From positions 32,001-96,000 of IMG/VR virus record IMGVR_UViG_3300030333_008334: a DNA stretch of 64,000 bases. One strand, 5' to 3'. The notes beneath the pieces are model-generated. The model was not told the origin of the DNA, did no database searches, and worked only from the letters and a program-made list of their open reading frames with translations. Shown piece by piece: positions 1-49,205 of this stretch. Position 1 is the stretch's first letter. Every line of letters begins with the position of its first letter. The DNA comes from a virus. The position numbers and the translations under genes are program-made.

Positions 1-1245
1 ACCAGCATGAGCACCTGTAATAAGATCCTCAAGAATCTCACGATCAATTTCAAGAGCAATGTGCTCGGAGAGAATTGAAGTAAGCTCGACCTCAGCGTCC
101 AAGTTATGGTAGGCGTTAAGATCCTGACCAAGCTCTGGGGTCCACTTAGCCTTGAGCTTCTTCGTCACCGCGGTCACAGCAATGCTGTCGACCTTGATGT
201 CGATCTCAGGGATATCTTGGCTAACCTCATTCGCAAACGCAGTAGCCACAGCCTGATCGCCTGAACTCTCAAGCAACCACTCTGAAGCGCCCTTGACAGC
301 GCCGATTGCGTTAGCAGCGTCAAAGTTATCAGCTGTTGCGTAATGCCAAACAGTGCTGGGGTTATTGCCGCCCAATGAACCAGACACAGTAGCCATAGTG
401 GTACCGGCGTCAGGCTCAATAACAAAACGAATAGTGGTTTTGCCCAAGCCCGGGACAAAGTGGGTTAAGCGACGATGCAATGTAGCATTAATATCAGTAG
501 AAACGTTAATTGCGGCCAAGTTGTCCAAATTAAGCTCTTCGCCGCCTGCCTGGAATATACTAGCAGAAACATCAACAATGAGAACGTTTGAGCCGGAAAG
601 GTCCGGATCATACTGAACCATCTTCTCTAGCTGATTGACGCTGGTGAATGCCGCACCTCCGCCGGGGGAGCCGCCGTTGAGGATACCGCCGCCAAGGCTG
701 GGGGTGCTAAGAGAACCGACTGTACCGGATGCATGAACGATAATGCCGTTCGTCGGCGTAACATTCGCTAGCGGGGAAGCATAGCCGTTGCGAAGGTTGT
801 AGAAACCGCCGCCATCATTAGCGGAAAGGTTAACACCACCTGTCACCTGGCTTGCAACCACGTTACCGCCATAGACAGAAACATCAGCCAAGTCGCCTAG
901 GCGAGCATCAGTCTGAGTAAAGTCAAGGAAGAAGATGAGGCCAGAAGGCAAGCTCATCGGTTGCACGGAAACAAGATCGTTAGCGATCAAGGATCCGAAA
1001 ACACGACGAACGATTGGGAACGCAACAGATGCGAAACCTTCAACGTCGCCGCCGGCCATTGTGCTGGCCTCTTTCAAAAGTTGTGAAGCCTGATTCTCAA
1101 GGAGTCGGGCCATTGAATTCTTGGTATAATCGTTACCAAGACCCTCAAGAAGACCAGTGCGTTCCCATTTATCCATTAGGGCAGCACCTTCTCTCTGTAG
1201 GTCGCGGTTAACAATACCTTCAGTTAATTTATCTAATACAGACAT
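1..1245 (-). CDS. gp23: Major capsid protein, T4 gp23-like (3' end truncated by window edge)
   Basis: Not in the ORF track. Manual translation from ATG 1245: MSVLDKLTEGIVNRDLQREGAALMDKWERTGLLEGL...ARLLENQASQLLKEA...AFPIVRRVFGSLIANDLVSVQPMSLPSGLIFFLDF...TKKLKAKWTPELGQDLNAYHNLDAEVELTSILSEHIALEIDREIL. These are hallmark gp23 motifs; SD AGGAGG upstream. Confidence 0.96.
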   Translation of the reverse strand, partial: MSVLDKLTEGIVNRDLQREGAALMDKWERTGLLEGLGNDYTKNSMARLLENQASQLLKEASTMAGGDVEGFASVAFPIVRRVFGSLIANDLVSVQPMSLPSGLIFFLDFTQTDARLGDLADVSVYGGNVVASQVTGGVNLSANDGGGFYNLRNGYASPLANVTPTNGIIVHASGTVGSLSTPSLGGGILNGGSPGGGAAFTSVNQLEKMVQYDPDLSGSNVLIVDVSASIFQAGGEELNLDNLAAINVSTDINATLHRRLTHFVPGLGKTTIRFVIEPDAGTTMATVSGSLGGNNPSTVWHYATADNFDAANAIGAVKGASEWLLESSGDQAVATAFANEVSQDIPEIDIKVDSIAVTAVTKKLKAKWTPELGQDLNAYHNLDAEVELTSILSEHIALEIDREILEDLITGAHAG

Positions 1246-1268
1246 TTTTAAACCTCCTATATATTGTT

Positions 1269-2318
1269 TTATTTTAAGCCTGCAAGGGTTTTCCATCTAG
1301 AAAGTGATGGATCATCCTTCTTTGTTGCACTTTGGTTTCTATTCCTACCATGCAACAACAAACCAGCGGAAGAATTTTTAACGGCTTCACTCAGTGATTG
1401 TGGCTCTCTTTTTGTTGTTGTGCTGCCCACTGCGTTCTGAAGAGTTTCAAAAATAACTTTTGCTTCTTCGACTGTTTCGGCCTCTGAAATAGCTTCGACA
1501 ATTTTATTTTTTTGCCGCTCATTTAAGGAGTCGCTGATTAAGACCTTATTTGTATATAATAGTTTAGCATTGGTTAGAGAAGACTCTGTTAATTTATCTT
1601 TCATAATATAAATTGTTTCTCTTAACTGTTCTTTCTCTTCACCATGCGTTTGATTTTCAACTTTAAGTTTCTCAAGTGCAGATTTTAAAGCTTCATTTTC
1701 TTCTTTAATTTCTGTATCCTCTGCACGAGCTAAAAGTTCTTCTTGTGCCTGCGCCAATTGGCTAGCTGGCATGCCATTATTTCCCCATCCACTGGAAACT
1801 GGCTTGATATCGACTACTAATTCTTCCAAAATAGAAGAAAGAAGGTTCTCGTCTAATTCAATCTCTTCTTCAACATCAAGCTCTTCCTGCAATGGAGCGC
1901 GGAGTTCGTCATCTTCTAAAGCATCGGATCCTAAAATATCTGACGCCAAAGTCTCTTGGCTCTCTGGTTTTTCTGGCATTTCATCATCAGGCATTTTGGT
2001 AAGCTGATCTAGATCAACCTCAAATGTGTCCTCTTCCTCTGGACATGGACAAAGCTTCTCGCCGTCGACGGTGACAATAGGCATGTCCTTAAGTGCGGAG
2101 TCTTCTTCTGGCTCTTCGCCTGGAAGTGGTGCCTCTGCATCTAAATCCATTGCTTCATCACCCATGTCGGGTGCAAGTTCTGGTTGCTCTAAAAGAGTTT
2201 CAACCGCTTCTTTAATCTGATTGGAGTATTTCTCAACAATCATATCTTCTGCATTTTTAAGTGCAGCTTCACGCAGTGCTTCTGCGTCGACTATTGCTTG
2301 TTCTAACATTGATGACAT
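1269..2318 (-). CDS. Prohead core scaffold protein (gp22-like)
   Basis: Very acidic, with a coiled-coil C-terminal half and many L/I-x-E candidate protease sites; immediately upstream of the MCP; ends RWKTLAGLK. Confidence 0.8.
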   Translation of the reverse strand: MSSMLEQAIVDAEALREAALKNAEDMIVEKYSNQIKEAVETLLEQPELAPDMGDEAMDLDAEAPLPGEEPEEDSALKDMPIVTVDGEKLCPCPEEEDTFEVDLDQLTKMPDDEMPEKPESQETLASDILGSDALEDDELRAPLQEELDVEEEIELDENLLSSILEELVVDIKPVSSGWGNNGMPASQLAQAQEELLARAEDTEIKEENEALKSALEKLKVENQTHGEEKEQLRETIYIMKDKLTESSLTNAKLLYTNKVLISDSLNERQKNKIVEAISEAETVEEAKVIFETLQNAVGSTTTKREPQSLSEAVKNSSAGLLLHGRNRNQSATKKDDPSLSRWKTLAGLK

Positions 2319-2353
2319 TTATAATCTCCCGTAAAAAAACGTAAATTATCAAA

Positions 2354-2367
2354 ATAAATAGTATTAT
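2354..2367 (-). promoter_or_regulatory. Candidate late promoter ATAATACTATTTAT upstream of scaffold-MCP
   Basis: Identical 14-mer recurs at 28019-28032 upstream of another structural gene; lies just downstream of a terminator. Confidence 0.55.
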
Positions 2368-2426
2368 ATATGCATAAAAGAAGAAATTTTATACACCCAC
2401 TTGGATGCCTTATAACATACACATAT

Positions 2427-2500: not shown

Positions 2501-4789
2501 TTATTTTTGTAATTTAGCAACAATCTCTTTAAGCTGAGCGATCTGATCCTGCTGAGCCTTGATAGCACCTGCAAACAAGGTCGACATTCTTGAGTAATCA
2601 ATACCACGACCTTCGCCGTTAGCATCAAGAGCACAAATTTCAGGAACAACCTTCGCAACATCCTGAGCGATGAAGCCAATTTCGCTTTTACCTGTGGCAA
2701 CTTTGTCATAGGTAGTTGGCTGCAGCTTCATGACCTTCTCAAGGCAGTTATCCATTGTCTGGATGTTTGTCTTGAGAGTACGATCAGAATAAGTAACGAA
2801 TGCATCAGCGCGCATGTTGCCATGGCCAGTCTGGACGTCAATTGCAAACCCAGAGCCTGGTGCTCTGCCAATTCCAACTGCGTTTTCAGACTCATCCCAG
2901 AGGAAATATCTTCCGGAAGTAGCACCGAAGAACTTAACATCGTAGCCAGTATCATCAACACCAACAGTAATTGTACCGTCAGCCTGAACGTTACCGTCAA
3001 TGTCGACTGCATCAAGATTTGCAGTTCCGTCAACGTCAAGATCAGTACCAACATACAATTTCTTGGCAATACCGACACCACCAGCAACTTGCAAAATACC
3101 GGATGTTTTGCTAGATGCATCTGTAGTGCCTTCTAGGAGCACGCTACTAGCAGCCTTGAGTGAGCCGCTGAATTCTGCTGTGCCGTCAACTTCAAATCCA
3201 CCAACGTTTGTGATGTTCTGGCTGCTTGCATTAAGCGCTTGGCCGAGAGTATCAGCATGAAGTGCAACAATGTGAGCCTGAGCAAAACGATCAGATCCGC
3301 CGCCCAAATCATAAGTGTTATCAGCATCTGGTACCAAGTCAGAAGCTAATTTACCATTGAAGTAAATGTTGTCTGCCTGACTGTTAGCATTGGAACCAAG
3401 GTTGATAGTACCTGACATAGCAACGCCGCCGGCTGCAGTAACTTGACCAGTAAGTGTAGAAGTTGAAGCAACGGACAAAGTGCTCTTAAGAGTTGCAGCT
3501 CCAGTAACAGCAATAAGACCATCAAACAATGCTGCGCCGTCGACGCTCAATGATTGACCGACCATCATGTGGCCAGATCCTGAGATGCTACCAACAACAC
3601 CCAAAGCAGAACCGTTCCAAGCAAGGTTTGCGCTTTCCGAGAAGACGCCTGAACCATTGCTGAAAGCAATTGCTCCATTGCTTGTTAGGCCAGTAGCCTG
3701 CAGGGTAGTTGCTTTAACGTTACCGCCAGAGCTGTAAATAACAGCTTTACTGTTGACAACAGTATCAGCAGCAGCGCCATCAAGCAAGTTAAGTTCACCC
3801 GCATCTGAAGTAACTGCTGCACCAGCTAATTGTAAACCACCTGCTTTAGCGACGTTGAAATCAACATCGTTAGCCAGTGCTAAAGACTGATTTGCAAGAG
3901 TCATGATATCGGCATCCGCATCACAACCAATTGTTGAACTATTGTCAACTGCCAAGCTTTTGAGAGCTGTGTCGCCATCAGCGTCAACTGAGAATCCAGT
4001 CATTGTGATAGTAGCAGCTCCCAAGTCAGCAGAAACGTCCAAGTCGCCCGTAACATCCATGCCAGCGGCGTCGACCGAAGCATATGCTGTGCCAGCAATA
4101 TTAAATTCAAGCTTTGCGCCTGTGTGCTCATAAAGAACTGAAGCAACAGCGTCAGTGCCGCTAACGCCACCGATCTGTAAACCACCGCCGTCAGCTGCAG
4201 CAGATGCTGATCCTGAAGCAGCAATGATCAATTTGTCAACCACCTCAAGAACCGTTTCGGTTTTGTTAACAGTGTTGCTGTTAATTTCGTTAACGTCCAA
4301 GACATCAATCTTAGCGTATGAAGCTGTTAGCTGACTAACTCCACTAAGAACTGTGCTTCCGTCACCTGTAATATTACCATTTGCAATAATGTTGTTAGTG
4401 AAAGTTATATGATCTGCGAACGTTCTTGCGCCGGAAATTGAATCTTTAAGATCAATACCAGATGCGCCGAGCTGCAGAGCATCGCTGTCAACTTTAGCAA
4501 TAAGCTTGTTACTGCTAAATTCCATGCCTGGATTTGTTGCCAAATCAATTGCGATTGAAGCATTAGCTGTGCCATCAAAAGTAAAGTCAGCGATACCATT
4601 GCCGTCTGTTAAGCTATACTCGTTTGTTGCAACGAGTCTTTGAGTTTGAGAACCAGCTCTTCTCAAAGCTAGCTTTGCGTCGGTGCCTGAACCAGTTGTA
4701 TAAAGCTGGACTTCGCCCTGATTAGTAGCAGCATGCGAACCAGAAGCCAAAGCCTCTAGAACAATAGATTTTCCATATTGTGTAGCCAA
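2501..4789 (-). CDS. Trimeric fibre/spike protein with C-terminal intramolecular chaperone (peptidase S74) domain
   Basis: G/A/S/T/D-rich beta repeats (DLDVDGTANLDAVDIDG). C-terminal SDRTLKTNI...GFIAQDVAKVVPE...IDYSRM followed by a coiled coil. TTG start with AGGAGG SD. Confidence 0.85.
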   Translation of the reverse strand: MATQYGKSIVLEALASGSHAATNQGEVQLYTTGSGTDAKLALRRAGSQTQRLVATNEYSLTDGNGIADFTFDGTANASIAIDLATNPGMEFSSNKLIAKVDSDALQLGASGIDLKDSISGARTFADHITFTNNIIANGNITGDGSTVLSGVSQLTASYAKIDVLDVNEINSNTVNKTETVLEVVDKLIIAASGSASAAADGGGLQIGGVSGTDAVASVLYEHTGAKLEFNIAGTAYASVDAAGMDVTGDLDVSADLGAATITMTGFSVDADGDTALKSLAVDNSSTIGCDADADIMTLANQSLALANDVDFNVAKAGGLQLAGAAVTSDAGELNLLDGAAADTVVNSKAVIYSSGGNVKATTLQATGLTSNGAIAFSNGSGVFSESANLAWNGSALGVVGSISGSGHMMVGQSLSVDGAALFDGLIAVTGAATLKSTLSVASTSTLTGQVTAAGGVAMSGTINLGSNANSQADNIYFNGKLASDLVPDADNTYDLGGGSDRFAQAHIVALHADTLGQALNASSQNITNVGGFEVDGTAEFSGSLKAASSVLLEGTTDASSKTSGILQVAGGVGIAKKLYVGTDLDVDGTANLDAVDIDGNVQADGTITVGVDDTGYDVKFFGATSGRYFLWDESENAVGIGRAPGSGFAIDVQTGHGNMRADAFVTYSDRTLKTNIQTMDNCLEKVMKLQPTTYDKVATGKSEIGFIAQDVAKVVPEICALDANGEGRGIDYSRMSTLFAGAIKAQQDQIAQLKEIVAKLQK

Positions 4790-4811
4790 AATAAACCCCT
4801 CCTATAAAATA

Positions 4812-4919: not shown

Positions 4920-5846
4920 TTATTTCTTAAGCTTTTGATTTAATTCATCAATTTGCTTTTGCTGTTTTTTTACGGCTTCGACCAAAAAAGAGATTATTTT
5001 TAGGTAATCCATACCCTGGGCGTCTTTTTTGTTATCTTCCCAGGAAACAATACCTGGCAAGACTTTTCCGACATCCTCTGCAATAAATCCATAATCTACA
5101 CGTTCAGTATCTTTCCACTTAAATGAAACGCCATTTAGTTTATTTAGCACATCCATTGGGTCGTTTAAAACTTCAATATCTTTTTTATATCTCTGAGAAG
5201 AGTATGAAACAAATGCATTTGCTTTGATTTGTCCCGTTGTGTTATCATTGTTTGGAAGAGTAATTGCGTGAGTTATATCTGAATTTGGAATTCCAACGCC
5301 TAGCTTTTGGTCTACAATAACATGAGATCCGGATAAAACAATTCCCTTCGCAGCAGATCCTGAAATTACCAATATTTCTGCTGAGCCGTCGTTGTAATAT
5401 ATCTTAGCCTCTTTGTTTGGACCAAAATTAAATGCTGCTGATTCTCCTGCAGAGGTAAATTGAACCTCGCCGCCAATTTTAAGGGGGGAGGCTCCCTCTA
5501 ATGTTCCTGCTATCTGAACAGTTGAGCCAGACAAAACAATGCCATTGGTTGAGCCAGAAATTACTAAATAATCCTGACTGCCTGAATGTTTTATCGAACA
5601 CTCATTATTATTACCAAAAAATAAATATTTGTCTGTTGGTAAATTTACACTGCCATCGAAGCTGGTAGAACCAGAAAATATATGAGCATCTAGACTTGAG
5701 TCGCCAACATGCAAACTGCCAGATATCTTAAGATCATCGCCGATTTTAAAGTCGCCGGCTGTAAATGCACCGGTTACGACAACATCTCCGCCGAACTGCG
5801 CAGTGCTACCAGCTGAATTGAACAGTCTTATCGGACGATATGGCAT
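4920..5846 (-). CDS. Short fibre protein with peptidase S74 chaperone domain
   Basis: SSQRYKKDI...GFIAEDVGKVLPGIV...MDYLKI followed by a coiled coil. Internal ~40-aa duplication (LVISGSTNGIVLSGS / LVISGSAAKGIVLSGS). Confidence 0.85.
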   Translation of the reverse strand: MPYRPIRLFNSAGSTAQFGGDVVVTGAFTAGDFKIGDDLKISGSLHVGDSSLDAHIFSGSTSFDGSVNLPTDKYLFFGNNNECSIKHSGSQDYLVISGSTNGIVLSGSTVQIAGTLEGASPLKIGGEVQFTSAGESAAFNFGPNKEAKIYYNDGSAEILVISGSAAKGIVLSGSHVIVDQKLGVGIPNSDITHAITLPNNDNTTGQIKANAFVSYSSQRYKKDIEVLNDPMDVLNKLNGVSFKWKDTERVDYGFIAEDVGKVLPGIVSWEDNKKDAQGMDYLKIISFLVEAVKKQQKQIDELNQKLKK

Positions 5847-5864
5847 GTATTAGTCTCCTAATAC
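5847..5864 (-). promoter_or_regulatory. SD-occluding hairpin spanning the intergenic gap
   Basis: GTATTAG-GAGA-CTAATAC directly before the ATG; perfect 7-bp stem with GNRA loop, containing AGGAG. Confidence 0.55.
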
Positions 5865-8146
5865 TAAGTAGACGCTACTCCAGTTACTAACCATTTCATG
5901 AGAGAATCTGTCGCAGCCACGCAAACAACATCAACATAATCTCCAGGTGCTGCCATTGCGCCGACAAAGGCCACATAATCGTGACCACCGCCGCCTGGAC
6001 CTGTGCCATTAAAAACAACGCCACCGGGAGCAGAATTCGAGGACGCGTCGACAATATATCCAAACATAAAGTCATTAGAAGCGTCGCCTCTGGCTATTTT
6101 GATTCCCCGGTTGCCGGCTGTATCCAGCATAACTCGAAATTGATAACCCATTAATTGCCTAGCGCCGTCCTCAGTTGTCGCTGATGGCAGCGTAATTGTT
6201 GTATTTCCACTGGGACTGTCTTCTTGCGTCTGAATTGCTTTTATAATAGAGCCACAATATCCCATTGCGCCGGTCAAGCTCAGCGTTGATAAATTCAAAT
6301 CTGAGCCGCTAAGTTCATGAATTGGCTTTTTATGACCCCAGCCGCCGTAGCCGCCATTATTAAAAGACATCGCATTGACCGTGCCGGTAGCATTAACAAA
6401 ACGAACAGCGGCATAATCGGAAGTAGAGATTGTCTGAAAATCCACAGAGGGACCTGAACCGGTAGTGACTAAGTTTATAGAAAGAGCGTGTGTGCCTGCT
6501 TTCTTAATTTCAATATTGTCGCCGGCTGCATCAAGAATAATGTCACCATCGGCATCCAAAGTAAGGTGGCCACTAGTTCCCTCACTATCAAATGTGGCAA
6601 GGGTTGTGGATCCACTGCCGGCAACTTTTAAGGTAGCATATGCTTGATGGTTGCTAGCGATACCGCCGGCTGTGCCCGCAGTGGGGTAAGTCCATACCTT
6701 AAAAGATCCTGAAGTTGCTTCAAAATCAAAGGCGGAGACGCCATTATCTGTAATCGTAACAAGACCTGTGTCGGCATCTAGCTCTATATCACCATCAACA
6801 TTTATAATAAGATCTGCATTATCCGCATCATCATCGATTGTTTGTATTTGAGTCGCGCCGTTGGCGGCAACAACTATTCTAAAAAAATCACCTGTGTCAG
6901 TATCATCATATATCGTAAACATTGTGTTATCACAATCGAATGAAAAATGACTTGCACTATCATCTTTGATAGTAACCTGGCCGCCATCGGCATTTAGTAC
7001 AATATCATTTCCGCAATCAATGGTAAAGTTGCCGTCATCTGCAACTGAAATGGTTGTAGTGTCAGCTGCATCATCTCCTTGATCAGCACTCAAAGTAAGC
7101 GTTGCTGCTTGGGCTTCACCGCCAATAATAGCAGCAGATCCACTAACAGACAAGCTTCCTGTTATAGCTACCGAGCCGCTTATATCCAAAGTCGATGTCG
7201 GAGAAGACTTGCCAACGCCAACTTTTCCGGAATTGTCGATTATTACTTTTTGAGAATTGCCGCCGGCGCCAAAGTACAGGTCTGCTTCACTATAAAGTGT
7301 TACATCTTGATCTCCGGTGTCCCATGCAATACCCCCTGATTTGGTTCCGCCGGCTTTGGTAAAGTGGAGATTTCCACCGTTTGTATCGCCGGTGTCGATC
7401 TCCATAGTTCGAGAACTTGGTGTTACTCGAAAAGTTCCATTACTAGTAGTTAACAAGCCGGTCTTATGTGTGGCGCTATAACGCACATAAGACTGTGGTA
7501 AACCAGTTTGACTTTTAACATCAAGCGGAGCATCAGGACTAGCCGTTCCAATGCCGACATTACCGGTGAATTTATGTACATCGTCTGCGCTATTACCGAA
7601 ATCTGTACTGCCGGTTGAACTAATATTAACAACCGACTCATTTACAACATTTACTTTGAACTCATTCGCCACCAAAGTACCAGAGACAAACAATGAGCCA
7701 GTTAAACGTACTATTCCAGCTGTGTAGTCATAAGTAAGATTATTGCTTCCAGAGATTATAGATCCTGAATTAATTAATATTTGAGTGTTTGAGCTGGAAA
7801 CTAGCATATCTGCAGTTATAAGAGTTGTATCAGTCGATCCAACAACTATAGTAGAAATGGTTTCGTTATAATCAACTTTTGTCCAACTTGAACCGGTTGT
7901 ATATACACACCAGTCGTTAACTTGCCAAGCATTTTGTCCATCTAAATTTGTTGAGCCGGCAGTATTAACTTGCCAATATTCTCCGACGCTAGCTGCCGAG
8001 GTGCCAGCAAGAACACCATTTCCATACCCACCGCTTACATGTGAGCCGGTGAATGAAACGCCACCAGACAAAGCAACGTTTGTGCTGGCGTTCCAATAGC
8101 CTCTAAATCTAGAAATTCCTATAAATGATAATTCGCCACTTGGCAT
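5864..8146 (-). CDS. Fibre-like structural protein
   Basis: N-terminal FRGYWNASTN...GEYWQVNTAG...WQVNDW module; GNVGIGTASP and GKVGVGKSSP fibre repeats; three DIxLxAxG-type repeats. Confidence 0.75.
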   Translation of the reverse strand: MPSGELSFIGISRFRGYWNASTNVALSGGVSFTGSHVSGGYGNGVLAGTSAASVGEYWQVNTAGSTNLDGQNAWQVNDWCVYTTGSSWTKVDYNETISTIVVGSTDTTLITADMLVSSSNTQILINSGSIISGSNNLTYDYTAGIVRLTGSLFVSGTLVANEFKVNVVNESVVNISSTGSTDFGNSADDVHKFTGNVGIGTASPDAPLDVKSQTGLPQSYVRYSATHKTGLLTTSNGTFRVTPSSRTMEIDTGDTNGGNLHFTKAGGTKSGGIAWDTGDQDVTLYSEADLYFGAGGNSQKVIIDNSGKVGVGKSSPTSTLDISGSVAITGSLSVSGSAAIIGGEAQAATLTLSADQGDDAADTTTISVADDGNFTIDCGNDIVLNADGGQVTIKDDSASHFSFDCDNTMFTIYDDTDTGDFFRIVVAANGATQIQTIDDDADNADLIINVDGDIELDADTGLVTITDNGVSAFDFEATSGSFKVWTYPTAGTAGGIASNHQAYATLKVAGSGSTTLATFDSEGTSGHLTLDADGDIILDAAGDNIEIKKAGTHALSINLVTTGSGPSVDFQTISTSDYAAVRFVNATGTVNAMSFNNGGYGGWGHKKPIHELSGSDLNLSTLSLTGAMGYCGSIIKAIQTQEDSPSGNTTITLPSATTEDGARQLMGYQFRVMLDTAGNRGIKIARGDASNDFMFGYIVDASSNSAPGGVVFNGTGPGGGGHDYVAFVGAMAAPGDYVDVVCVAATDSLMKWLVTGVAST

Positions 8147-14835: not shown

Positions 14836-14838
14836 ATC

Positions 14839-42000: not shown

Positions 42001-45000
42001 AAGCAGTTAAGAAATATCCTGTGTCTCCGTAGCGAGAAACTGGATTTTCAGCACCTGGGGCGGTATGAGTTGCGCCATCTCGCAGTCCAAATTTCTCACT
42101 GTGACGTACTAGAAGGCTAGCGGAACCATAGTTTGCTAAGAATCTTCTAGTTGCCCAGTTTCTCCACGGCAAAGCGTTGTATACAGAAAAAGTCTCAGAA
42201 GCCCTATCTAGATATCCCCTAGACAAAGTTGCGGGATCGCCTGGAGCGGAGAATCTTTCAGCAATGACTGTTTTGTTTCTGCTGCCATCTTTTAATTTTC
42301 CTCGATCGACTAATTGATAATCTTGGATGCCTAAGACTGCATCTAATTTGGATAATTCATCAGTAACACCGCCTTCTCCGTCGACACCTTCACGAATCCA
42401 TAGGTTGTTGACATTTCTACCTGAAGTTTGTACAACTTGGTAGTTATGTTCATAATTACCTATAATTGTTGGTAGCTTTTGATGACCTTTTTGTTCCTCA
42501 ACCACAACCTCGCCATTGTTTTTCGCAACAGCACCCGGCAATTCGGTCGCGGCCTGATGCTTGATATTTCTAATATTAACCGGTCGTTTCGCGTATTCAT
42601 CTCGATACATTGTTGCGCGGGGGCGATCTAAGTTTATAACCAGTCCAGAATTAGCATCGTATCTAAGCATTTTTTTATAGTTAATGTCGTATAATGACAT
42701 TTCTGCGTTTTCAGTTACAAAGGCAGTTAAATTGATATTATCAATCGCAACATAGCCCAAATATCCATAAGCAGGATGTCCAAAATTAACAAATCTTATG
42801 TGAAAACTGGTACCTATGTAAGAGGTCAAATCAACAGTCGCTTGACGCCATGCAGAGCCTTGGGCACCTAATAAAGAAGTTGCGCTGACGCCATTCCAAC
42901 TAGTTGTCAAGGTTGTATAAGTAGATTTATCTGCTGTGTGCTGTAGTAAGAGTTCACCAGGATTTGGCCCTATCATTAAATAGAAAAATGTCAACTTTGG
43001 CCCGGGTGTTTTAGCGGGATCAACATTCGTTAAATCAATCTTCGGCGTTGTAAACTGAAACTCTCTTACGTTACTATAGTTTGTTGTTTGCTCAATGGTA
43101 GTTGCCGGTGGAATAATCGTTGTGCCATGGCCAGCATTGCCGACAATAACCGCAGTGGTATAATTTTCTGGAGTTACTAGCATTCGATAGCCATTTTGAG
43201 ACGAATAGCTCGTTCCGCCGTGAATAAAGTTATTTTTTAAATTAAAACCAAAGGAAGGAATTCCTGCTCCGGGGCCTCCATAATCTATATACTTTTCAGA
43301 TGAATTTGTTTTTGGACGATTATCAAAACCGCTGTCAGCGTTAAATTCAGTCACTGAACTATAGCCATCAAAATCTTCTTTCAAAAGATTGACAAGTGTT
43401 GTGTTGTTATATGGCTTTCTAAGATACCAGCCCTCTGGGCGTGTGGCTTCGGTATCAATACCGCGAATAGAAGAACTGTAATTTATATCAATATGTCGAT
43501 ATTGTAAACCACCGACATATTTTTCAGTAAATGGGCCTTGCATTGGCGCCTCATTTCCAATAGTATATTTATCTTCATGAATATTCGTTATATCTATCCT
43601 AGAGGCAGTAACAAATGAAGCATAGCCTCCTTCTCCCAAAGAAGAAGAATATACAGCGAATGGAACAATTAAATTAGCTTTTGATTTACCATAAGAATCT
43701 TGTGTATTTGTATCTGTAGAAACTCCTTTGCTAAAGACTTCGGCAGTTCCTTTTATCTTTACCTTATTGTTTAAAGTCTTATCATCTTTACATACTGGAT
43801 ATTGTGATGAATCTTTCTTAATTGTAATAAAGGATGTTCCGTCTTTAAATTTAATTGCTTGTCGATGATATCCAAAAAGATTATTTGAGTCTTTATTAGA
43901 CCCACCATCTAAATGCTTAGAAGTGTCAATAGCGAACTTATAAGGCTTAGACAATCTTCGAAGAGCATATGTTGACCCTTTATATGTTACGCCGGCGGCG
44001 TCTTTTCTGCGAGGACCTGAAGCACTGTTTTCTGTTGTTACAACATCTTTTATAGTATTTCGTTGGCTGTCGACTGTTGTGTTGCCAGAAGTTAATGCAG
44101 CTGAATCTCTTTCGGCGCGCTCTGAAAACCACAGACAGCCTTTGTCTTGACCCAAGGAAGAGGTAGCATGACCAAATTTCCAATTATAGGTAAGTTCATT
44201 AATACCAAAAATCTTACCCTCGGGTGGGTCTTGGTTCATCTCTAGAGTTGGAAACTTATTCCAGTATTTGTTTCTTTCCAGAACATGACTTTCGATCATG
44301 TTTCTTAAACTATCACTCACGTTAGCAGATGCCGGCAGCAAATCGTGGATCATGCTTATAATTGCTGAATCAAACCACTTGTAATAATTTAAATATTTCT
44401 CTATATCTGGAGTGTTTTGAACTTTTTCAAAGAAAAGCTGGCGAAGCTTGGCCATCTCTTTGTAGTCTTGTCGGTATCTATTGACAGGATCGCCAATCAC
44501 ATTGTTGAAATACTCTACAGTATCAAAGAAGTTTATCATCTCTTGAGAGATCGTTTGATACATACTTTTCTCTAGAGCAACATAATATTGAATTGGTCGA
44601 CTTTCTCTTGTGAATACATCATCATCTTGAGAGACAATGTTAATCATATCATCAGAATTGATTAATTCCGGCAATTGTTTTTTTGCAGCTGGAATATAAA
44701 ATTTATCAACAATCTTATTGCTGCTGGTTACAAAGAACTGTCCTTTGGCGTCATGTTGCTTATCAACAATATTGGCAAACAAAGTTGGATATCTAGATCT
44801 ATAATTATTTGAACCTGAAGAATAGTCAACCACATGAAACGTTCCGTCAGCAGCCGAAGAAGTTACGTTTTCAAAATCCCAATTTAATATTAAAGTCTCT
44901 ATTGGTCGAATTCTAGATCCAGACATCTGTGTCTGGCTAAAAAGAGAATTTCCATAATCGTGAGGACGTCCAAAGTTTGCGGGATCTAGAGCATGCGCCT

Positions 45001-47677
45001 TCACAGACCCTGTTGTAAGATGGTCTAGCCAGGCACGTACATGGCCTATTTTCACGTCGGAAGAGATTAGGGTACTTCCGGTAAAGTCTAAGCGTTGGGC
45101 GCCGGCATACATCCTTTTCGGGGCCGATACGAACTTTCTACCAGATTGATAATCCAAGCTCTTTGTAAGGTGGAATTCGTTGATAATATGTCCCAATTCT
45201 CTGTTGACGCCATAAAATTCTAATTTATAGCCAGTAGTTGCGTCAATAGATCCAGAGGAGCCAGATACCAAGTCGATATATTTCTTTTCAGGGCTAACTG
45301 AGACTGCAAAATTCCATTTTGAGTTATCGTAGACTTCATTAAAATAACCAGAGGATAGTGTCACAGATCCACTTAGATCAACAGCGAAACGTGCATCAAA
45401 AGGATTAGTCTGACTCTTTACAGAGTAAACTTTAAACTGCGCGTGATCATTTGCCGAAGTGGCTCCGTCCATCCACTTGATAGTAGTTGCACTATTATTA
45501 TCGACCTGTCGAGCACCAAAAATAGAACTTGTGCCTAGAATTGGCACTTCTCCAAAAATTTTATTATTTGTAACTTTTTTTGGAAAAATAGCTTCGGCTT
45601 CCGCAGAGAAAGAAAAACCATGTAAATATTCATCATTGAAAATATTTGTACCACTAATAAAGTTAACAGAATTAGGATTGGATGCATCAGTGCTTTGGTA
45701 AACTGTTGCGTCAAAAGCAGTTTGATTTAATGGTGCTTTAAAAATAAAGTCATTAAAGTCAACATATTTGTTGTCAACTGAAAGTTCTCTATAATTGTCC
45801 TCAAACAGATAAGTTGTATTATCCCCATATAGATTTATTTTAATCAACTCATCGTCGATCCCAAAACATCTTAAAACATTACGTAAGGATCTTTCTGTTC
45901 CTTTTGATTTATAAATTGGCGTTAGATTATTATATATATTTTGATATATAAAGTTCTTAAGCTCTTCTAGCTTCATTCCGAAAGATGCACTTTCATTACG
46001 ATCGTAAAACCTTTCCAAGGCTGTTACGTCTGTAAAAATTTGTGAAGTATCAAAACCGTAGGAATGCAAAAGTTTTTCAGTAAAAGGTTTTGGCTTATCA
46101 GTAAAAGTAGCTCCTAGGCTGCTGCTAGGATATCCTAGATTTTTTAATTTAGGCACTTCATCGATTTGAAGCTGAACAGTGTCAAAATGACTGGCCAATA
46201 TTTGTGTTAACTTTTTCAGTACTTCTGAGCCACCTATTGTAGGATCGGTATCGCCTTCTATAATCCAGGAAGGCAAAGTATTGAAAATAGCAGAATTATT
46301 TTCTTGATCCCACTCTTTACCTTCTTGCACTTTTCTTGCATAGTAAGAACTAACACTTGGATGACTTGAATATATAATAGGATCTTTATATTCAGAAGTA
46401 ACATGTCCAGATTCTACCATCGCAGATTCTGTGTGTCGTGAACCTGCTTGATATCCAACCCAATTTCCGTTTGATATTCTACCAGAATAATCTAATACAA
46501 CAGAGTCTTTAGTTGAATTTCCAACAACACCTTCATTAAATTTAAAGTATACGCCCAGATTCACATTAGAAGTGTCTGTGTTGGTGCCGCCTCCAACTTG
46601 AAATTTCCAAAACCGTCTAATTTCTTTTGGAGTCCTGGCTGTCTTCCAAAAGCGAAATTCATCCAAGGAAGCAGAAAGTGTATTCCATCCTAAATCGCCA
46701 ATCGCTCCACTAACTGCGGCTTGAGCACCAATCGTAGCAAAGTTTCCATTGAATTGTCCAAAAGTTTTGCTGCTTTTTATTTCAGACTTTTGTACACCAT
46801 CAGTAAAAAGTCTAACACGTGTTTGATTACTTTCTTCATCAAAAACAAAAGCATAATGATGCCAAGTTGAATCTTTGAAATCAGCCAACCCAGAAGCAAT
46901 TGGTAATTCAAAATTATCATGTGCGGGGCCTGAACCAGAGTGACACATAATATAGAAATTAGCATCGGCCGACGACAGACTAATTCGCAAACGACCATTA
47001 TCCCACGCTGGATTTCCGTCAATAGAGCTACTAGTCCATAAGTCGAATATTGTCTCTTTAAGAACTCCTGGGGATGAAGAATGGTCAGCAGCCCAGCCAG
47101 TCTTTTTCATCCAAAATTCAATTGTGTTTCCACGAGTTGCAAAATCTACTTTTAGATTACTATCACGATTTGATCCAGTGTGCCAAATATTTGCTTTACT
47201 TAACTTAATATCATCTTTATAAGTGTAAGCACCTTGAGGACCATGAGGGCCGCCTTTAACTAAAATATATTCTGGATTGTTATTTTGCCAGTTTTGCGAT
47301 GAAATGCTTGATGCATTAATAGAGAAATTTTTACCAATCTCAACATATCCATTTGTTCTTGGGTATTCTTTTTCAAAAATAAATCTCTGTAAAAAAGACC
47401 CAGTGTTGTGCCAAGATATTTTTTCTTTTAATGAGCCGTCATATGGAAAAGTTTTATAAATATTGCTAATAGTATCGGCATAGTACATTTCTGCCGAGCC
47501 ATATCTTGCAAATGCTTGTGGCTTGGTAAAATCTACATTAGGAAAAAATCTTTCAGTATCTTTTTTATATTCCGCAACAAAGCTGGCAGATTCCATGCCA
47601 TCATCTAGAAGGTTATCTAGTGTTTTGGAAGAAATGATTTTTCCACCATTTTTATTAAAATAATCTTTAACGCTCAT
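36023..47677 (-). CDS. Giant (3884 aa) baseplate wedge-like protein with LamG and MAM-like domains
   Basis: LamG-type TIEFWMK...WHHYAFVF...LDEFRFWKTART; IYKSKGTERSLRNVLRCFG (gp7/P2 gpI-type motif); second LamG-like unit; MAM-like LTFFYLMIG...WRQATVDL...VAIDNINL. Confidence 0.75.
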   Translation of the reverse strand: MSVKDYFNKNGGKIISSKTLDNLLDDGMESASFVAEYKKDTERFFPNVDFTKPQAFARYGSAEMYYADTISNIYKTFPYDGSLKEKISWHNTGSFLQRFIFEKEYPRTNGYVEIGKNFSINASSISSQNWQNNNPEYILVKGGPHGPQGAYTYKDDIKLSKANIWHTGSNRDSNLKVDFATRGNTIEFWMKKTGWAADHSSSPGVLKETIFDLWTSSSIDGNPAWDNGRLRISLSSADANFYIMCHSGSGPAHDNFELPIASGLADFKDSTWHHYAFVFDEESNQTRVRLFTDGVQKSEIKSSKTFGQFNGNFATIGAQAAVSGAIGDLGWNTLSASLDEFRFWKTARTPKEIRRFWKFQVGGGTNTDTSNVNLGVYFKFNEGVVGNSTKDSVVLDYSGRISNGNWVGYQAGSRHTESAMVESGHVTSEYKDPIIYSSHPSVSSYYARKVQEGKEWDQENNSAIFNTLPSWIIEGDTDPTIGGSEVLKKLTQILASHFDTVQLQIDEVPKLKNLGYPSSSLGATFTDKPKPFTEKLLHSYGFDTSQIFTDVTALERFYDRNESASFGMKLEELKNFIYQNIYNNLTPIYKSKGTERSLRNVLRCFGIDDELIKINLYGDNTTYLFEDNYRELSVDNKYVDFNDFIFKAPLNQTAFDATVYQSTDASNPNSVNFISGTNIFNDEYLHGFSFSAEAEAIFPKKVTNNKIFGEVPILGTSSIFGARQVDNNSATTIKWMDGATSANDHAQFKVYSVKSQTNPFDARFAVDLSGSVTLSSGYFNEVYDNSKWNFAVSVSPEKKYIDLVSGSSGSIDATTGYKLEFYGVNRELGHIINEFHLTKSLDYQSGRKFVSAPKRMYAGAQRLDFTGSTLISSDVKIGHVRAWLDHLTTGSVKAHALDPANFGRPHDYGNSLFSQTQMSGSRIRPIETLILNWDFENVTSSAADGTFHVVDYSSGSNNYRSRYPTLFANIVDKQHDAKGQFFVTSSNKIVDKFYIPAAKKQLPELINSDDMINIVSQDDDVFTRESRPIQYYVALEKSMYQTISQEMINFFDTVEYFNNVIGDPVNRYRQDYKEMAKLRQLFFEKVQNTPDIEKYLNYYKWFDSAIISMIHDLLPASANVSDSLRNMIESHVLERNKYWNKFPTLEMNQDPPEGKIFGINELTYNWKFGHATSSLGQDKGCLWFSERAERDSAALTSGNTTVDSQRNTIKDVVTTENSASGPRRKDAAGVTYKGSTYALRRLSKPYKFAIDTSKHLDGGSNKDSNNLFGYHRQAIKFKDGTSFITIKKDSSQYPVCKDDKTLNNKVKIKGTAEVFSKGVSTDTNTQDSYGKSKANLIVPFAVYSSSLGEGGYASFVTASRIDITNIHEDKYTIGNEAPMQGPFTEKYVGGLQYRHIDINYSSSIRGIDTEATRPEGWYLRKPYNNTTLVNLLKEDFDGYSSVTEFNADSGFDNRPKTNSSEKYIDYGGPGAGIPSFGFNLKNNFIHGGTSYSSQNGYRMLVTPENYTTAVIVGNAGHGTTIIPPATTIEQTTNYSNVREFQFTTPKIDLTNVDPAKTPGPKLTFFYLMIGPNPGELLLQHTADKSTYTTLTTSWNGVSATSLLGAQGSAWRQATVDLTSYIGTSFHIRFVNFGHPAYGYLGYVAIDNINLTAFVTENAEMSLYDINYKKMLRYDANSGLVINLDRPRATMYRDEYAKRPVNIRNIKHQAATELPGAVAKNNGEVVVEEQKGHQKLPTIIGNYEHNYQVVQTSGRNVNNLWIREGVDGEGGVTDELSKLDAVLGIQDYQLVDRGKLKDGSRNKTVIAERFSAPGDPATLSRGYLDRASETFSVYNALPWRNWATRRFLANYGSASLLVRHSEKFGLRDGATHTAPGAENPVSRYGDTGYFLTASYHKINRNPGYRLYTSGSGYLRPYNPQADYEYNYDGQEATSYKTQNDNWLVQHTIPRSDTQYNWIWRSLSQKQKQPYNHVYALASSANSNKPTAPWGHATASHQFTFLSASEIGSYVTTHVTNPVLGVTADGTPLNARFFVNDFIGLNINIHEPITSSANTLGHFVDPSLRTSAGSLKNPYPTAFHLGYVGKASNDAVVSSQMPGSILNSLLHHRNGPYHYPSWKQIRTGEHPIVRHQRRSNIITLTTEEGVIGDTRPYDWHKAREFGSLAAEISLLHRKIKSDGLKIHKYTEPPVSSKFKPMVAEKSGFTYVYSYANNLVKFDNKALNTRLQLDEIDDYHESTENKIYEVMANDTSVFKHRYTETVWPRAQHTYLNKTRVRTEYSEIEGHSKKGYDRISHNTFWKNRHTIDSPDRLRTEGSASNSMGWRISRFGGPKMSDGTYFMDYHPSKPMPFCDAVSVAQGRLTNHVVSASENMDFGGTVLPFCNPSIGSTFMDMPLSAWPLDDGKYGGILETNNRFHGDTPLIPQGGYYGPTYKQDWLVIFSSSAELDSLNRSSVLPRPAGSGLPPAQEGDNEGVLRHHVDTSSSAVSPTGQYFKAHTFRGSYNLISGSTFGNHFTSGTFGMKGELAEDPSMNFLTSWASANWACGTASFMDPYVGKAAGVDNFGTGTIKPGVATVGRITSINSRAYNWKTNTNNSFGARHNYAAMGGISDNTAYMTIHSGSEWSQKGYRNMPPPTFDTMFRGGYRRPYASPCLFRDPYNNFNVAGLSSSFSGAPAGKESGSAETIHKAGRLGHAIVSSQSNIIGEHYTFTNGNGEYIANTLDFSGALGYVKTAPYYRANKIANKNPWYDSYEDYIEDVRVFGKDYGVLAEFNMSENMDEYAQYNFDYTKPNPGLFTLRGQGSMSSSLYFPPGTSILTEQYKNTGVMREQFLRRYCISDSMDYMHNKVGEDISLGGGARPRAITLRFDAITKLMPYYGFYPVTRTMQLATLFSQSIGPFLSCSLDNLSVNKKTYLGYHHSKEVWEHGDAVSGGIAYTPAGTYVERGAEFITASAHPTYELMGSKGTTSYPHRGLNYGLKDGVHFSTRLFDLAAAGHEGAKGWKQALIDVHQAGKMQSMLQPTFAPGIMFNTIKSGVAVDYPIYINQREPAVTNFVTEIGDGIKLKDHTDGAILIDAPNYRLPFETLYDLSNIPSAPPEGLGEVPKIYYTEPTWHMCGTDDQGNAKLGKEMAGSFYAAWTGERGPLYEKAANNFLSEIPNFFLKNSGLTSFTSARSSQIKPMVRDRTYLMNVSIEIFDQYRPGGPSPESPQAGSEFVMAEGPRKPLVPITDRQTQYQPLPRRGSIFGPALLKWSDKADASNGKSWTGGPTATGSITTLIATDSAQPDVEGTSYGTSGELYNLTSHETDPCYAPYTPPYYYGKAVYKMAYTHQPDAGSQLGNLVAEVDGALGAAPMQAAIPTLEEIITNIQTNSVSEEYNLFDRPVYYRDDGTPVLAKDVALTLDSSSPSTGSRGHTAYKHRMKVSSSLDLFKIKEVLFQAPDGSTKKEKVWEISTKFECPVINLAESSYVGTGRHRPDLTHEQQKDNANKGYFSDRTGRSIWMGYSNTDNVDGFGNETTTLSDGTVVSFPRRGVKITLSDATNNPEESLLNVAGFRNGPNADEEQELSKYIGQIANSKTVTEAIVAIPFLENELPGVTYSPFTKYGVNIHFIKIHPDEYYAQYENFTSGKPAVHVDLASQVLGSKNAHSKMDLTFPAEDIGETSISRMINMMDQYVIPPELDFYHRGIGSKDLPSGKKYLLTRQRFMNNQEDGIDPFIMYIHEFSRQLDNKDLGDIWQNLLPDAGMRAKKEASVLSHAMSGDRSNYEFWGRLDHLNTKIAEGQWSGNHRQENINENSKTLKKIFGPTQQYGGVKWLIFKVKKRANMSMRQLKNKNEVSSLFQVDNVGNLAGGSSVSEDVRLQSRYNYNWPYDFFSLVETAKLSVEYEL

Positions 47678-49205
47678 CTTTCTCTATTCTAAACCTAAAT
47701 TTTTCGTTTTGCTCGTGATATTGGCCATTTGAATAATATGAAAATTTTATTTCATACATATAATCTGATTCTAGCAAGCTCATATCTAAATCAAAATAGT
47801 TACCTGAAACATCTATAGAAAGTCTAGTGTTGTACATTTGATTAGAGCCTGTACCATACGGAATAACTTCTAAATCATCCGCCACTCTTATAACTTTATA
47901 GAAAGCATCTTCAACCGGCTCTGCTGTTGCTTTTGCTGACGCTTTAGTATATATTGTCGGACACCAGTTTTTAGCCCTAGTAAATAATCTTAATCTAGGT
48001 ATTTCATCTCTATTGTAAGCCGGCTTAAGATTTCTAATATTTGTCACGTAACTATCTGATGGGTCATTATAACTGTTGGCAGAATAATTTTTAATCTTTA
48101 AAGTTCCTGTGAAGTATTGATTACTTCCACTGAACCAGACATCATGCAAAATAGACGCAGTAGTATTGACTGCGATGCTGGCAGAATATATGCCAGTCTT
48201 ATTGTTGCATATGCCGCCAGTAACAGGTGTAGTTGGCAATATGGTTAGAGGGTCGCCAACAGGAGATCCATTTGAATCAGCATAAAGATTCACATATATG
48301 TTTTGTGAATTATTGCCTAGAGGAATATTTTTAAGCTGCCCTCTGACGTAATTATAAAGATAAATTTTATTTAGATTATCTGCTGGGGATACTAAAGAAC
48401 TGCTAGCATAAAAATCTGATCTTCTATCTTTTATTGAAGAATCCCATTGTGCTTCAATGCATGGTTTTTTATAAAAGAACTGCGTTCCCCTAGCAAAAAA
48501 CTTTTTAGTGTAGTATGATCTGCGAGGATTGTAACTGGCGCTTTCATAAGCGCCAGACAGTCTAATCAGCAGACCATCGTATTTCTGGTGGTTAGAACCG
48601 CTTGGACAGTTTCGTAACCAGGCCTCGACCCAATTTGTCATATCAACATTTAAATCTTCATTGCCTTTTTCAAAGTATGCGCTAGCAGTCAGCACAATTC
48701 CAGAAGAATCTAGCCTGTGATAATCTAAATCTCCCGAAGCGCCCAAGGCATTCCATTGCTGATCAGTTCTAGCATTTTCCCAGTTAGAAGACCCAGAATT
48801 CGTATAGCCTTCCATGTCCAAGCCATAACCCTCTGTCCAGCCTTCATTCTGCTGAGGATCGACGCTTTCCGGCCAGTGCTGTGTATTGATTGGTAAAATA
48901 TGTAAATAATATTTTTCTGGTAGTGTTTGTGAATGTTTGGCATTAAACATTTTAAGATAGAACTTAACGTCGCCTAAAGCAGGAATATCTTTTCTATTAC
49001 GAGAAGCAGAAATTTCTGCAATGGGAAAGCTTATTAAAATTCTAGATTGCTCTAAAGATTGACTGCTGGCTTGACCATAAATTGAAAAAACTTCTAGAAT
49101 ATCAGACGCACCCATATTTGCCTGACTACCAGAATCAATTAAGTTTGATTTATAGGCATTAGTTATTGTATTGTCTTTATCAGCGTAAAACCTTTTGATT
49201 CCCAT
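47667..49205 (-). CDS. Structural protein with DNRLRE-like beta domain
   Basis: ADKDNTI...NMGASDILEV...SRILISF...FYLKMFN...WTEGYG; follows gp6. Confidence 0.55.
   Translation of the reverse strand: MGIKRFYADKDNTITNAYKSNLIDSGSQANMGASDILEVFSIYGQASSQSLEQSRILISFPIAEISASRNRKDIPALGDVKFYLKMFNAKHSQTLPEKYYLHILPINTQHWPESVDPQQNEGWTEGYGLDMEGYTNSGSSNWENARTDQQWNALGASGDLDYHRLDSSGIVLTASAYFEKGNEDLNVDMTNWVEAWLRNCPSGSNHQKYDGLLIRLSGAYESASYNPRRSYYTKKFFARGTQFFYKKPCIEAQWDSSIKDRRSDFYASSSLVSPADNLNKIYLYNYVRGQLKNIPLGNNSQNIYVNLYADSNGSPVGDPLTILPTTPVTGGICNNKTGIYSASIAVNTTASILHDVWFSGSNQYFTGTLKIKNYSANSYNDPSDSYVTNIRNLKPAYNRDEIPRLRLFTRAKNWCPTIYTKASAKATAEPVEDAFYKVIRVADDLEVIPYGTGSNQMYNTRLSIDVSGNYFDLDMSLLESDYMYEIKFSYYSNGQYHEQNEKFRFRIEKDER

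Follow-up and report, generated by a model that had tools for sequence, protein, structure and literature searches.

Chloroviruses and giant viruses encode their own soluble glycosyltransferases, together with rare-sugar pathways, for capsid glycosylation, and the glycans of PBCV-1 are N-linked at atypical sequons. In phages, Freeman et al. (2023, in Cell Host Microbe) are said to have described glycosylation of mycobacteriophage virions by phage-encoded glycosyltransferases. According to PMC12619734, these enzymes are proposed to O-glycosylate the mycobacteriophages' own structural proteins and to provide a surface sugar shield; the same paper refers to DNA glycosylation by phage glycosyltransferases as well known. 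In Gram-positive bacteria, the soluble GtfA/GtfB priming pair and variable extra glycosyltransferases O-glycosylate alternating-Ser (S-x-S) motifs of serine-rich-repeat adhesins (PMC6973325), while the O-glycosylation of flagellin with pseudaminic or legionaminic acid by Maf or FlmG has no site consensus (PMC7591256). Here we analysed a 64,000-nucleotide stretch of viral DNA (the window), namely bases 32001-96000 of the linear IMG/VR viral contig IMGVR_UViG_3300030333_008334 (112,740 bp; CheckV completeness 62%), whose structural proteins over-use the tripeptide [S/T]-G-S. Judging from sequence, this motif may mark the acceptor residues at which cytoplasmic glycosyltransferases encoded by the phage O-glycosylate the exterior of the virion, a reading that we find as easy to accept as to doubt.

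Across the 92 open reading frames (ORFs) of the contig (36,770 residues), and with expectations taken from per-protein composition, SGS ranked first of the 8,000 tripeptides (49 observed vs 15.7 expected) and TGS ranked 13 (29 vs 13.3), while SGT and TGT were not enriched. An initial annotation had proposed that SAS, TAS and SSS recur as well; SAS (26 vs 14.6) and TAS (21 vs 12.2) indeed show a modest enrichment, and SSS shows none. The annotation's per-protein counts were all exact; by our own count there are seven SGS in the 308-aa fibre, 13 sites in the 760-aa fibre, 16 in the 3884-aa protein and 5, 3 and 2 in the 512-, 393- and 370-aa proteins. Its two sites in the major capsid protein (MCP) fall, at the nucleotide positions it had named, on residues 234 and 305. 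Our recount also reproduced its zeros in Mre11-Rad50, the large terminase, the portal and the gp6-like wedge, and its single site in the 3479-aa giant.

The excess persisted against composition-preserving shuffles, the comparison that the annotation had called for, when these were confined to 8-, 15- or 30-residue windows (z 7.4-8.0); therefore local Ser/Gly richness is not its cause. Ser/Gly-rich composition or low complexity is ruled out by these shuffles and by site flanks that are hydrophobic rather than Gly/Ser-rich, in contrast to those of SGS in the control phages. The 78 sites comprise 52 distinct 9-mers and use every Ser and Gly codon, so that a DNA repeat or a codon artefact can be set aside, as the annotation had held. 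A single repeated homologous domain was also rejected as the carrier, given weak flank preferences and the many non-homologous columns involved. As a side observation, the Gly codon GGA is used at 42% of the 78 sites vs 29% genome-wide; wherever TCN follows GGA, the letters GATC arise, and some [S/T]GS sites overlap Dam-type GATC sites.

The window comes from a distant T4-like myovirus, uncultured and aquatic, and all its genes lie on the minus strand. The phage encodes a T4-type set (Gp23-type MCP, T4-type portal, large terminase and prohead protease), with a gp6-like wedge, two fibres carrying an S74 chaperone and a fused Mre11-Rad50 as further genes; those for the sheath, the tube and a T4 baseplate protein lie immediately left of the window. 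The nearest cultured capsids, at 34-48% identity, belong to Flavobacterium phage immuto, Microcystis phage Mel-JY01 and Rhodothermus phage RM378, the three lineage members in culture. No counterpart of the 512-aa baseplate protein was found in any cultured phage. We also compared relatives from IMG/VR, referred to as G001 to G005 (G001 being 191 kb long and rated 100% complete), as well as G006 (rated 100% complete) and G007. The site-bearing proteins of the window and the contrast proteins, with labels checked by Pfam/PHROGs, are the following:

1..1296, minus strand: major capsid protein, Gp23-type (Pfam Gp23, 9e-36), of which the window covers the N-terminal 432 of 614 aa; two SGS, both inside the variable insertion.
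2501..4789, minus strand: 762-aa tail fibre with a C-terminal S74 intramolecular-chaperone domain (Peptidase_S74, 2e-14; PHROG tail fibre families); 5 [ST]GS vs 1.5 expected.
4920..5846, minus strand: 308-aa tail fibre with an S74 chaperone domain (Pfam/PHROGs); 7 SGS vs 0.5 expected.
5864..8146, minus strand: 760-aa fibre-like protein with no family match; 13 [ST]GS vs 2.4 expected.
8158..9279, minus strand: 373-aa Gly/Thr-rich protein of the structural block; 2 sites vs 1.1 expected, not significant.
9291..9758, minus strand: 155-aa protein; 2 TGS vs 0.3 expected, and 4 sites in the G001 ortholog.
24685..25866, minus strand: 393-aa baseplate-block protein; 3 sites vs 0.5 expected, and 6 in the G001 ortholog.
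25882..26994, minus strand: 370-aa baseplate-block protein; 2 sites.
36023..47677, minus strand: 3884-aa giant baseplate/wedge-associated protein; 16 sites vs 4.9 expected, and 14 vs 4.0 in the G001 ortholog.
47667..49205, minus strand: 512-aa baseplate-block protein; 5 sites vs 0.5 expected.
12862..16413, minus strand (contrast): portal (657 aa; Portal_T4, 2e-79) and large terminase (524 aa; Terminase_6N, 8e-13); 0 sites.
18747..21899, minus strand (contrast): Mre11 (Pfam Metallophos, a metallophosphoesterase) and Rad50 (AAA_23/SMC_N) fused in one 1050-aa protein; 0 sites.
49207..51000, minus strand (contrast): gp6-like baseplate wedge subunit, 597 aa (PHROG baseplate wedge, 2e-19); 0 sites.
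51439..61878, minus strand (contrast): 3479-aa giant protein; 1 site vs 1.9 expected.

The 3884-aa giant also contains a ConA-like lectin / Laminin_G_3 domain (residues 178-353) and a MAM domain (1562-1651), which suggests, from sequence matches, carbohydrate-binding or adhesive modules.

We found that the sites concentrate in proteins of the particle's exterior: those of head, sheath, baseplate and fibres that face outward have the tripeptide at three to five times the expected frequency. With classes set beforehand from annotation, the exterior virion proteins (MCP, sheath, three fibres, giant wedge, gp6-like wedge and T4 baseplate protein) carried 50 sites vs 11.8 expected (P = 1e-16), whereas 24 enzymes and interior parts carried 3 vs 3.8, that is, they were at expectation. 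The tail tube has no site. In each lineage genome the excess is concentrated in 9-17 proteins and the remaining proteome is near or below expectation, a split made post hoc that is descriptive only. The site-rich proteins with a match or annotation are the sheath (in the contig, immuto, Mel-JY01 and G001), the 370/393-aa baseplate paralogs, the giant wedge, and fibres or tail spikes, among them the annotated immuto tail spike gp101 with 26 sites; the paralog family of the 370-aa protein is site-rich in immuto (2 copies), Mel-JY01 (5 copies) and G001. The site-rich proteins of RM378 gave no BLAST match to the contig's phage.

The same restriction is seen within single proteins. All 23 lineage sites in the sheath lie in its variable N-terminal two-thirds; the conserved C-terminal core, which aligns with T4 gp18, has none. 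In 76 capsid orthologs we counted 2.8 sites per protein vs 0.74 expected, distributed over 44 alignment columns; the variable insertion held 187 sites vs 36.6 expected from local composition (5.1-fold), and the conserved core 26 vs 24.8 (1.05-fold). The capsid proteins of T4, KVP40, S-PM2 and P-HM1 have no site. Gp23-type insertions and outer sheath domains face outward in T4-like particles. The suggestion that the motif marks surface-exposed positions is supported at the level of domains, with the MCP insertion, the variable sheath two-thirds and the fibres all expected to face outward.

The main rival explanation is that [S/T]GS is an unmodified turn preferred in this lineage, with S-G-S joining two strands of a beta-hairpin or beta-arc in beta-helical fibres and other beta-rich proteins of the exterior, and that the glycosyltransferases described below act on host envelope polysaccharide, lipopolysaccharide, glycolipids or something else. 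We consider this rather unlikely, though well worth weighing. The confinement of the excess to outward domains within one and the same protein already argues against it, and so does the specificity of the motif. Turn propensity is a matter of physics and should be equal across lineages, yet the eleven control phages introduced below show only DGS, NGS, SGT and SGN preferences, the generic turn words that reach 1.3- to 1.6-fold in six unrelated phages pooled. Pooling this contig with G001, immuto, Mel-JY01 and RM378, we obtained 423 sites vs 175 expected and a different profile. Position 1 favours S (2.5-fold) and T (2.3-fold), with D next at 1.5-fold; position 2 favours G (2.4-fold), then A (1.5- to 1.95-fold); position 3 is S, with T at merely 1.3- to 1.55-fold; and NGS, at 0.86-fold, is among the lowest of the X-G-S words. 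Residues flanking the motif are biased as well: position -1 is hydrophobic at 50% of sites vs 33% in the background (F, I, V and L at 1.5- to 1.9-fold), F reaches 1.9-fold just after the motif, and flanking K, N and D are depleted to 0.2- to 0.5-fold. This hydrophobic context was not seen at the SGS sites of the control phages. The lineage motif is hydrophobic-[S/T]-[G>A]-S-hydrophobic, and its sequence specificity resembles a recognition motif rather than a generic turn.

The way in which sites are conserved also speaks against a plain turn. In orthologs, sites of this phage persist as [ST]GS at about twice the rate of matched control tripeptides: 11 of 16 (69%) against a 73%-identity relative, where controls reach 29-42%, and 49 of 175 (28%) against twelve relatives of about 45% identity, where they reach 13-14%. 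The motif Gly is less conserved (46%) than Gly residues of these proteins are on average (53.5%). Joint retention of the three positions is 2.8 times the product of the marginals: where the G is kept, position 1 remains S/T in 69% and position 3 remains S in 60% of cases, vs 37% and 27% where it is lost. Part of this coupling reflects regional differences in conservation, and control tripeptides show a weaker form of it. Since the three positions are coupled, the word is kept or lost as a unit and replenished at new positions, so that sites turn over among non-homologous positions while their density is maintained. The 512-aa protein illustrates this behaviour, with a TGS at residue 452 invariant in 27 orthologs, other sites that turn over, and 3-10 sites per ortholog.

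The initial annotation had placed the modifying enzymes outside the window. We did find a candidate sugar gene cluster, which begins about 3 kb past the window's right edge (contig 99.6-111.1 kb, L003:4808-16280, minus strand) and comprises a NeuB-family synthase, a CMP (cytidine monophosphate)-sugar synthetase, sialyltransferase-like proteins and GT4 glycosyltransferases:

62906..64000 of the window (L003:107-2572), minus strand: 821-aa protein, its C-terminal part in the window, with a weak GDSL/SGNH esterase match (7.7e-5, below cut-off); the last gene ahead of the cluster.
L003:5653-6342, minus strand: cytidylyltransferase (CTP_transf_3, 8.8e-14; weak PseF-like NCBIfam match).
L003:6352-6840 (contig 101151-101639), minus strand: 162-aa PLD-like protein (PLDc_2, 2e-25), between the cytidylyltransferase and sialyltransferase-like genes.
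L003:8179-9219, minus strand: sialyltransferase-like protein (weak PF01973).
L003:9203-10105, minus strand: sialyltransferase-like protein (weak PF01973).
L003:10068-10820, minus strand: methyltransferase.
L003:10822-11649, minus strand: NeuB (2.4e-75).
L003:11646-13709, minus strand: fusion of a GT4 and a sialyltransferase-like domain.
L003:13714-15045, minus strand: GT4-B, 443 aa (Pfam GT4).
L003:15024-16280, minus strand: GT4-A, 418 aa (Pfam GT4).

In total, the contig has three GT4 domains above the Pfam cut-off and three sialyltransferase-like domains. NeuB scores 253 bits against PF03102 (cut-off 22); the protein has 275 aa and its match stops at position 274 of the 329-position model. 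Its NCBIfam matches, NeuB_NnaB (1e-77) and PseI (8e-57), are both under the equivalog cut-offs. The PF01973 (MptE-like) matches are weak (21.3, 16.3 and 22.3 bits vs a cut-off of 34.6), and one of these domains is the one fused to a GT4; PF01973 is carried by about 10 of 54 homologs of the PF01973-like protein. A profile of the sialyltransferase-like family found no relative in the PDB, and the link emerges by fold comparison only. An AlphaFold (AF2) model of the 346-aa PF01973-like protein, built from a 24-sequence alignment, is confident (predicted local distance difference test, pLDDT, 89; predicted template modelling score, pTM, 0.90). Its Foldseek matches are CstII, Cst-I, a Pasteurella sialyltransferase and human ST8SiaIII/ST6Gal1 (GT29), with E-values of 1e-5 to 1e-3, probabilities of 0.98-1.0 and modest template modelling scores (0.29-0.53). 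The model thus predicts a sialyltransferase/MptE-like fold, matching CMP-sialic-acid-dependent transferases (GT42/GT29). Around the cluster, a 100-aa ORF near the PLD-like gene shows a faint HAD-phosphatase match only. Small proteins at L003:17458-17907 (minus strand) and at L045:16362-17033 in G001 have weak PF07737 zinc-metallopeptidase matches (E-value about 3e-4, below cut-off), which probably reflect merely the common HExxH-type peptidase motif.

Only the tandem GT4-A/GT4-B is conserved lineage-wide. Each has a 1:1 ortholog in G001, immuto, Mel-JY01 and RM378, where the two lie side by side. The EX7E motif (EGFGLxxxE) is present in both enzymes and, among the five lineage members, is degenerate solely in the GT4-B of RM378. 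GT4 genes occur in all five relatives G001-G005, as well as in G006 and G007, and every complete or CheckV-rated-complete lineage genome examined carries GT4 genes of the pair's kind. At least 595 IMG/VR contigs match the capsid type, and at least 575-595 match capsid or GT4-B patterns. The recurrent gene order is a PD-(D/E)XK nuclease, GT4-A, GT4-B and variable sugar genes. A sugar-synthesis cassette stands beside the pair in every member but RM378, where the pair is near the polymerase and ribonucleotide reductase. The cassette is of nonulosonic-acid (sialic-acid) type in this phage; in G001 it consists of a GDP (guanosine diphosphate)-mannose 4,6-dehydratase (8e-122), a DegT aminotransferase and a formyltransferase (L046:2648-6640, L045:17721-18824), and in immuto of a WecE-type aminotransferase, a GT2 and a methyltransferase. 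The G001 genes fit an N-formyl-perosamine-type pathway, and a glutamine-synthetase-like protein is encoded just upstream.

Every lineage member examined in which we saw the excess also has the pair, and the two occur together in the cross-genome comparison (observed/expected counts, with ranks among tripeptides):

This contig: pair present; SGS 47/15.1, rank 1; TGS rank 12.
Immuto: pair present; SGS 65/24.5, rank 1; TGS rank 4.
RM378: pair present; SGS 29/10.8, rank 6; TGS rank 10.
Mel-JY01: pair present; SGS 63/22.3, rank 7; TGS rank 11.
G001: pair present; SGS 38/22.9, rank 76; TGS rank 35.

In G001, TAS is the third most enriched tripeptide (42 vs 17.5). Each of the twelve loci that surround the 512-aa gene showed a 2- to 6-fold excess, and 80 further capsid-centred lineage loci held 1,054 sites vs 337 expected; 37 of the 40 capsid-centred loci of at least 12 kb were above 1.5-fold. 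By comparison, T4, T5, SPO1, KVP40, S-PM2 and P-HM1, which have no GT4, gave SGS ratios of 0.7-1.6 and TGS ratios of 0.4-1.6, and TJE1, S-CBS4, S-EIVl, Samisti12 and Wakanda, each with a single distant GT4-like gene, gave at most 2.0 for SGS and 1.4 for TGS. Thus, none of the eleven control phages has the pair and none shows a combined SGS and TGS excess. A generic tail-fibre or T4-like property is ruled out, as the six phages T4, KVP40, S-PM2, P-HM1, T5 and SPO1 do not have the combined signature. The five phages with a distant GT4-like gene, among them the Streptomyces phages Samisti12 and Wakanda, have neither the pair nor the excess and are uninformative as a positive test of independent lineages. 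Among the cyanophage controls, SGT is over-used in P-HM1 (NC_015280; rank 3, 70 vs 32.7), where GSG is also high, and in S-PM2 (NC_006820; rank 6, 57 vs 29.8); it ranks 13 in S-EIVl (KJ410740). Something comparable, with another word, may be at work in the cyanophages.

Several results weigh against the glycosylation tag, and some of them favour the turn. The co-occurrence of pair and motif is confounded by shared ancestry, all positives belonging to one broad capsid lineage, and plain inheritance could account for both; we found no lineage member without the pair and no unrelated lineage with it. In G001 the pair is present, yet the excess is weaker and the fibres are not enriched. Non-virion proteins do not avoid the motif. 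The hydrophobic residues on both sides of the tripeptide, with charged residues depleted, fit a plain beta-turn, maybe partly buried, and in the 308-aa fibre several SGS fall within a 9-10-residue repeat (e.g. LVI-SGS-T, IVL-SGS-T), a period typical of a beta-solenoid. An AF2 model of the 512-aa protein (19 orthologs) is poor, with a pLDDT of 52, and places all five sites outside regular secondary structure: four in low-confidence loops, and one, the sole interpretable position, at a tight hairpin between two long strands (residues 359-361), as a plain turn would have it. On the enzyme side, the NCBIfam matches of the GT4s are BshA, MshA and glycolipid synthases. The acceptors of most characterised GT4 enzymes are sugars or lipids rather than proteins, and glycolipids or polysaccharides are common products of the family. 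NeuB was found in one of the five relatives' contigs (G001 included) and a sialyltransferase-like protein in none of them. Finally, in the literature searched there was no such sequon, nor any glycosylation detected by mass spectrometry or stain for the lineage, immuto, Mel-JY01 and RM378 included. The annotation's term "undescribed" therefore fits the sequon, although phage virion glycosylation as such is known from mycobacteriophages.

A second alternative, which we judge improbable, accepts that the word is read but assigns another reader to it: phosphorylation, acylation, a phospho-sugar, an assembly-chaperone docking word or an adhesive ligand-contact loop, the GT4 link being coincidental. 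Sequon-like specificity and unit-wise conservation imply that something reads the word and would suit any reader, and the lineage has many other common genes of unknown function. Against this, the Pfam scan of ORFs of at least 190 aa revealed no kinase, acyltransferase or similar enzyme, and the two GT4s are the only lineage-conserved modifying enzymes identified, standing beside sugar cassettes except in RM378. Very improbably, the cluster would modify phage DNA, as in T-even glucosylation, with the peptide motif unrelated: phage glycosyltransferases are known to act on DNA and the pair lies beside replication genes (the PD-(D/E)XK nuclease, and in RM378 the polymerase and ribonucleotide reductase), but DNA is an unlikely target. 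A ThyA-family hydroxymethylase would be needed to make the hydroxymethyl-pyrimidine acceptor of known DNA glycosylation, and we found none in this contig or in the three complete or rated-complete genomes of G001, Mel-JY01 and RM378. In addition, three sialyltransferase-fold domains with three GT4s imply a nonulosonic-acid oligosaccharide, for which we know of no precedent on DNA, and the DNA reading leaves the motif unexplained.

We favour an O-glycosylation tag because of its specificity profile, its restriction to outward domains, its unit-wise conservation with turnover and the lineage-wide GT4 partnership beside rare-sugar cassettes. The proposal of the initial annotation, a Ser/Thr sequon for O-linked modification by enzymes outside the window, is supported in part, by the enrichment, the domains expected to face outward and the co-occurring candidate enzymes, while the confounding by ancestry and the fit to a hairpin turn remain with it. 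Under the tag reading, the adjacent GT4-A and GT4-B, with EX7E intact, would act late in infection and prime the Ser/Thr hydroxyl of the tag with the first sugar or sugars. The tags would be presented in exposed loops or turns of the outer sheath domains, the baseplate periphery, the fibres and the capsid insertion domain. The swappable cassette beside the pair would then elaborate the glycan: in this phage through the NeuB synthase, the CMP-sugar cytidylyltransferase, the three sialyltransferase-fold domains, the extra GT4 and the methyltransferase; in G001 through the GDP-mannose dehydratase, aminotransferase and formyltransferase; and in immuto through the aminotransferase, GT2 and methyltransferase. 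The nonulosonic cassette cannot itself read the motif because it is not lineage-wide, and it was rejected as tag reader, together with the sialyltransferase-like proteins, for being absent from relatives that keep the tag; NeuB and the sialyltransferase-like proteins are more likely capping enzymes. In the end, the particle would bear a variable sugar coat wherever it comes into contact with its environment and with the surface of the host. The wider claim, that a large and globally abundant aquatic T4-like lineage with hosts in Bacteroidota and Cyanobacteria O-glycosylates its particle exterior at a hydrophobic-[S/T]-[G/A]-S-hydrophobic sequon, the conserved GT4 pair reading it and swappable cassettes varying the coat, is one that we advance tentatively, at slightly less than an even call.

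If this is correct, an O-glycosylation sequon would for the first time be defined for a bacterial virus, and with it a protein glycosylation system that is portable, cytoplasmic and directed by a sequon. A sugar coat would then be the norm for the virions of a very abundant aquatic phage group, with a bearing on adsorption, stability and stickiness in water, grazing, decay and the evasion of defences at the host surface. Sequence alone would suffice to predict the glycosylation sites, and the sugar cassettes would serve as readable markers of phage surface diversity. Moreover, two soluble enzymes reading a three-residue tag in the cytoplasm would make an attractive glyco-engineering tool. As three lineage members are in culture, the claim is directly testable.

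Compared with the mycobacteriophage system, the likeness lies in phage-encoded glycosyltransferases, represented here by three GT4 and three sialyltransferase-like domains. The mycobacteriophage system belongs to siphoviruses of Actinobacteria, and PMC12619734 places its glycans at the C-termini of the subunits that form capsid and tail tube, whereas the candidate sites here, in aquatic T4-like myoviruses, are internal tripeptides on the sheath, baseplate, fibres and MCP insertion, with none on the tail tube. This lineage is further set apart by its conserved GT4 pair and swappable rare-sugar cassettes.

The GtfA/GtfB system likewise consists of a conserved pair followed by variable further glycosyltransferase and sugar genes. 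However, GtfB is a non-catalytic chaperone that pairs via DUF1975 (PMC6973325), whereas both GT4s here keep EX7E, by which an enzyme-plus-chaperone pair of the GtfA/GtfB kind was ruled out; Pfam gave no DUF1975 hit. The acceptors also differ, being long tandem repeats in the adhesins and isolated S/T-G-S words in the ordinary sequence of folded proteins here, and the accessory Sec export of the adhesins has no part in this locus.

With Maf and FlmG the locus shares the proposed cytoplasmic Ser/Thr O-glycosylation in exposed domains of a self-assembling structure and a linked NeuB-family synthase and CMP-activating enzyme. Its PF01973-like transferases match the Maf family weakly by sequence, below the cut-off, and are clearly sialyltransferase-like by predicted fold. 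The locus differs in having a clear tripeptide, in NeuB and sialyltransferase-like genes that are not lineage-conserved, and in a 346-aa protein whose predicted fold is nearest to CstII and Cst-I, enzymes acting on glycans. Because the locus departs from both the serine-rich-repeat and the flagellin systems in defining features, we assign it to neither.

The chloroviruses infect eukaryotes, and the resemblance at the sequence level is distant: the best PDB match of GT4-A is 3OY2 (E-value 6e-8), the glycosyltransferase B736L, which we take to be chlorovirus-encoded. In its overall design, the proposed system nevertheless resembles those of chloroviruses and giant viruses, combining soluble virus-encoded glycosyltransferases with rare-sugar genes for a glycosylation of the particle that would be independent of the host.

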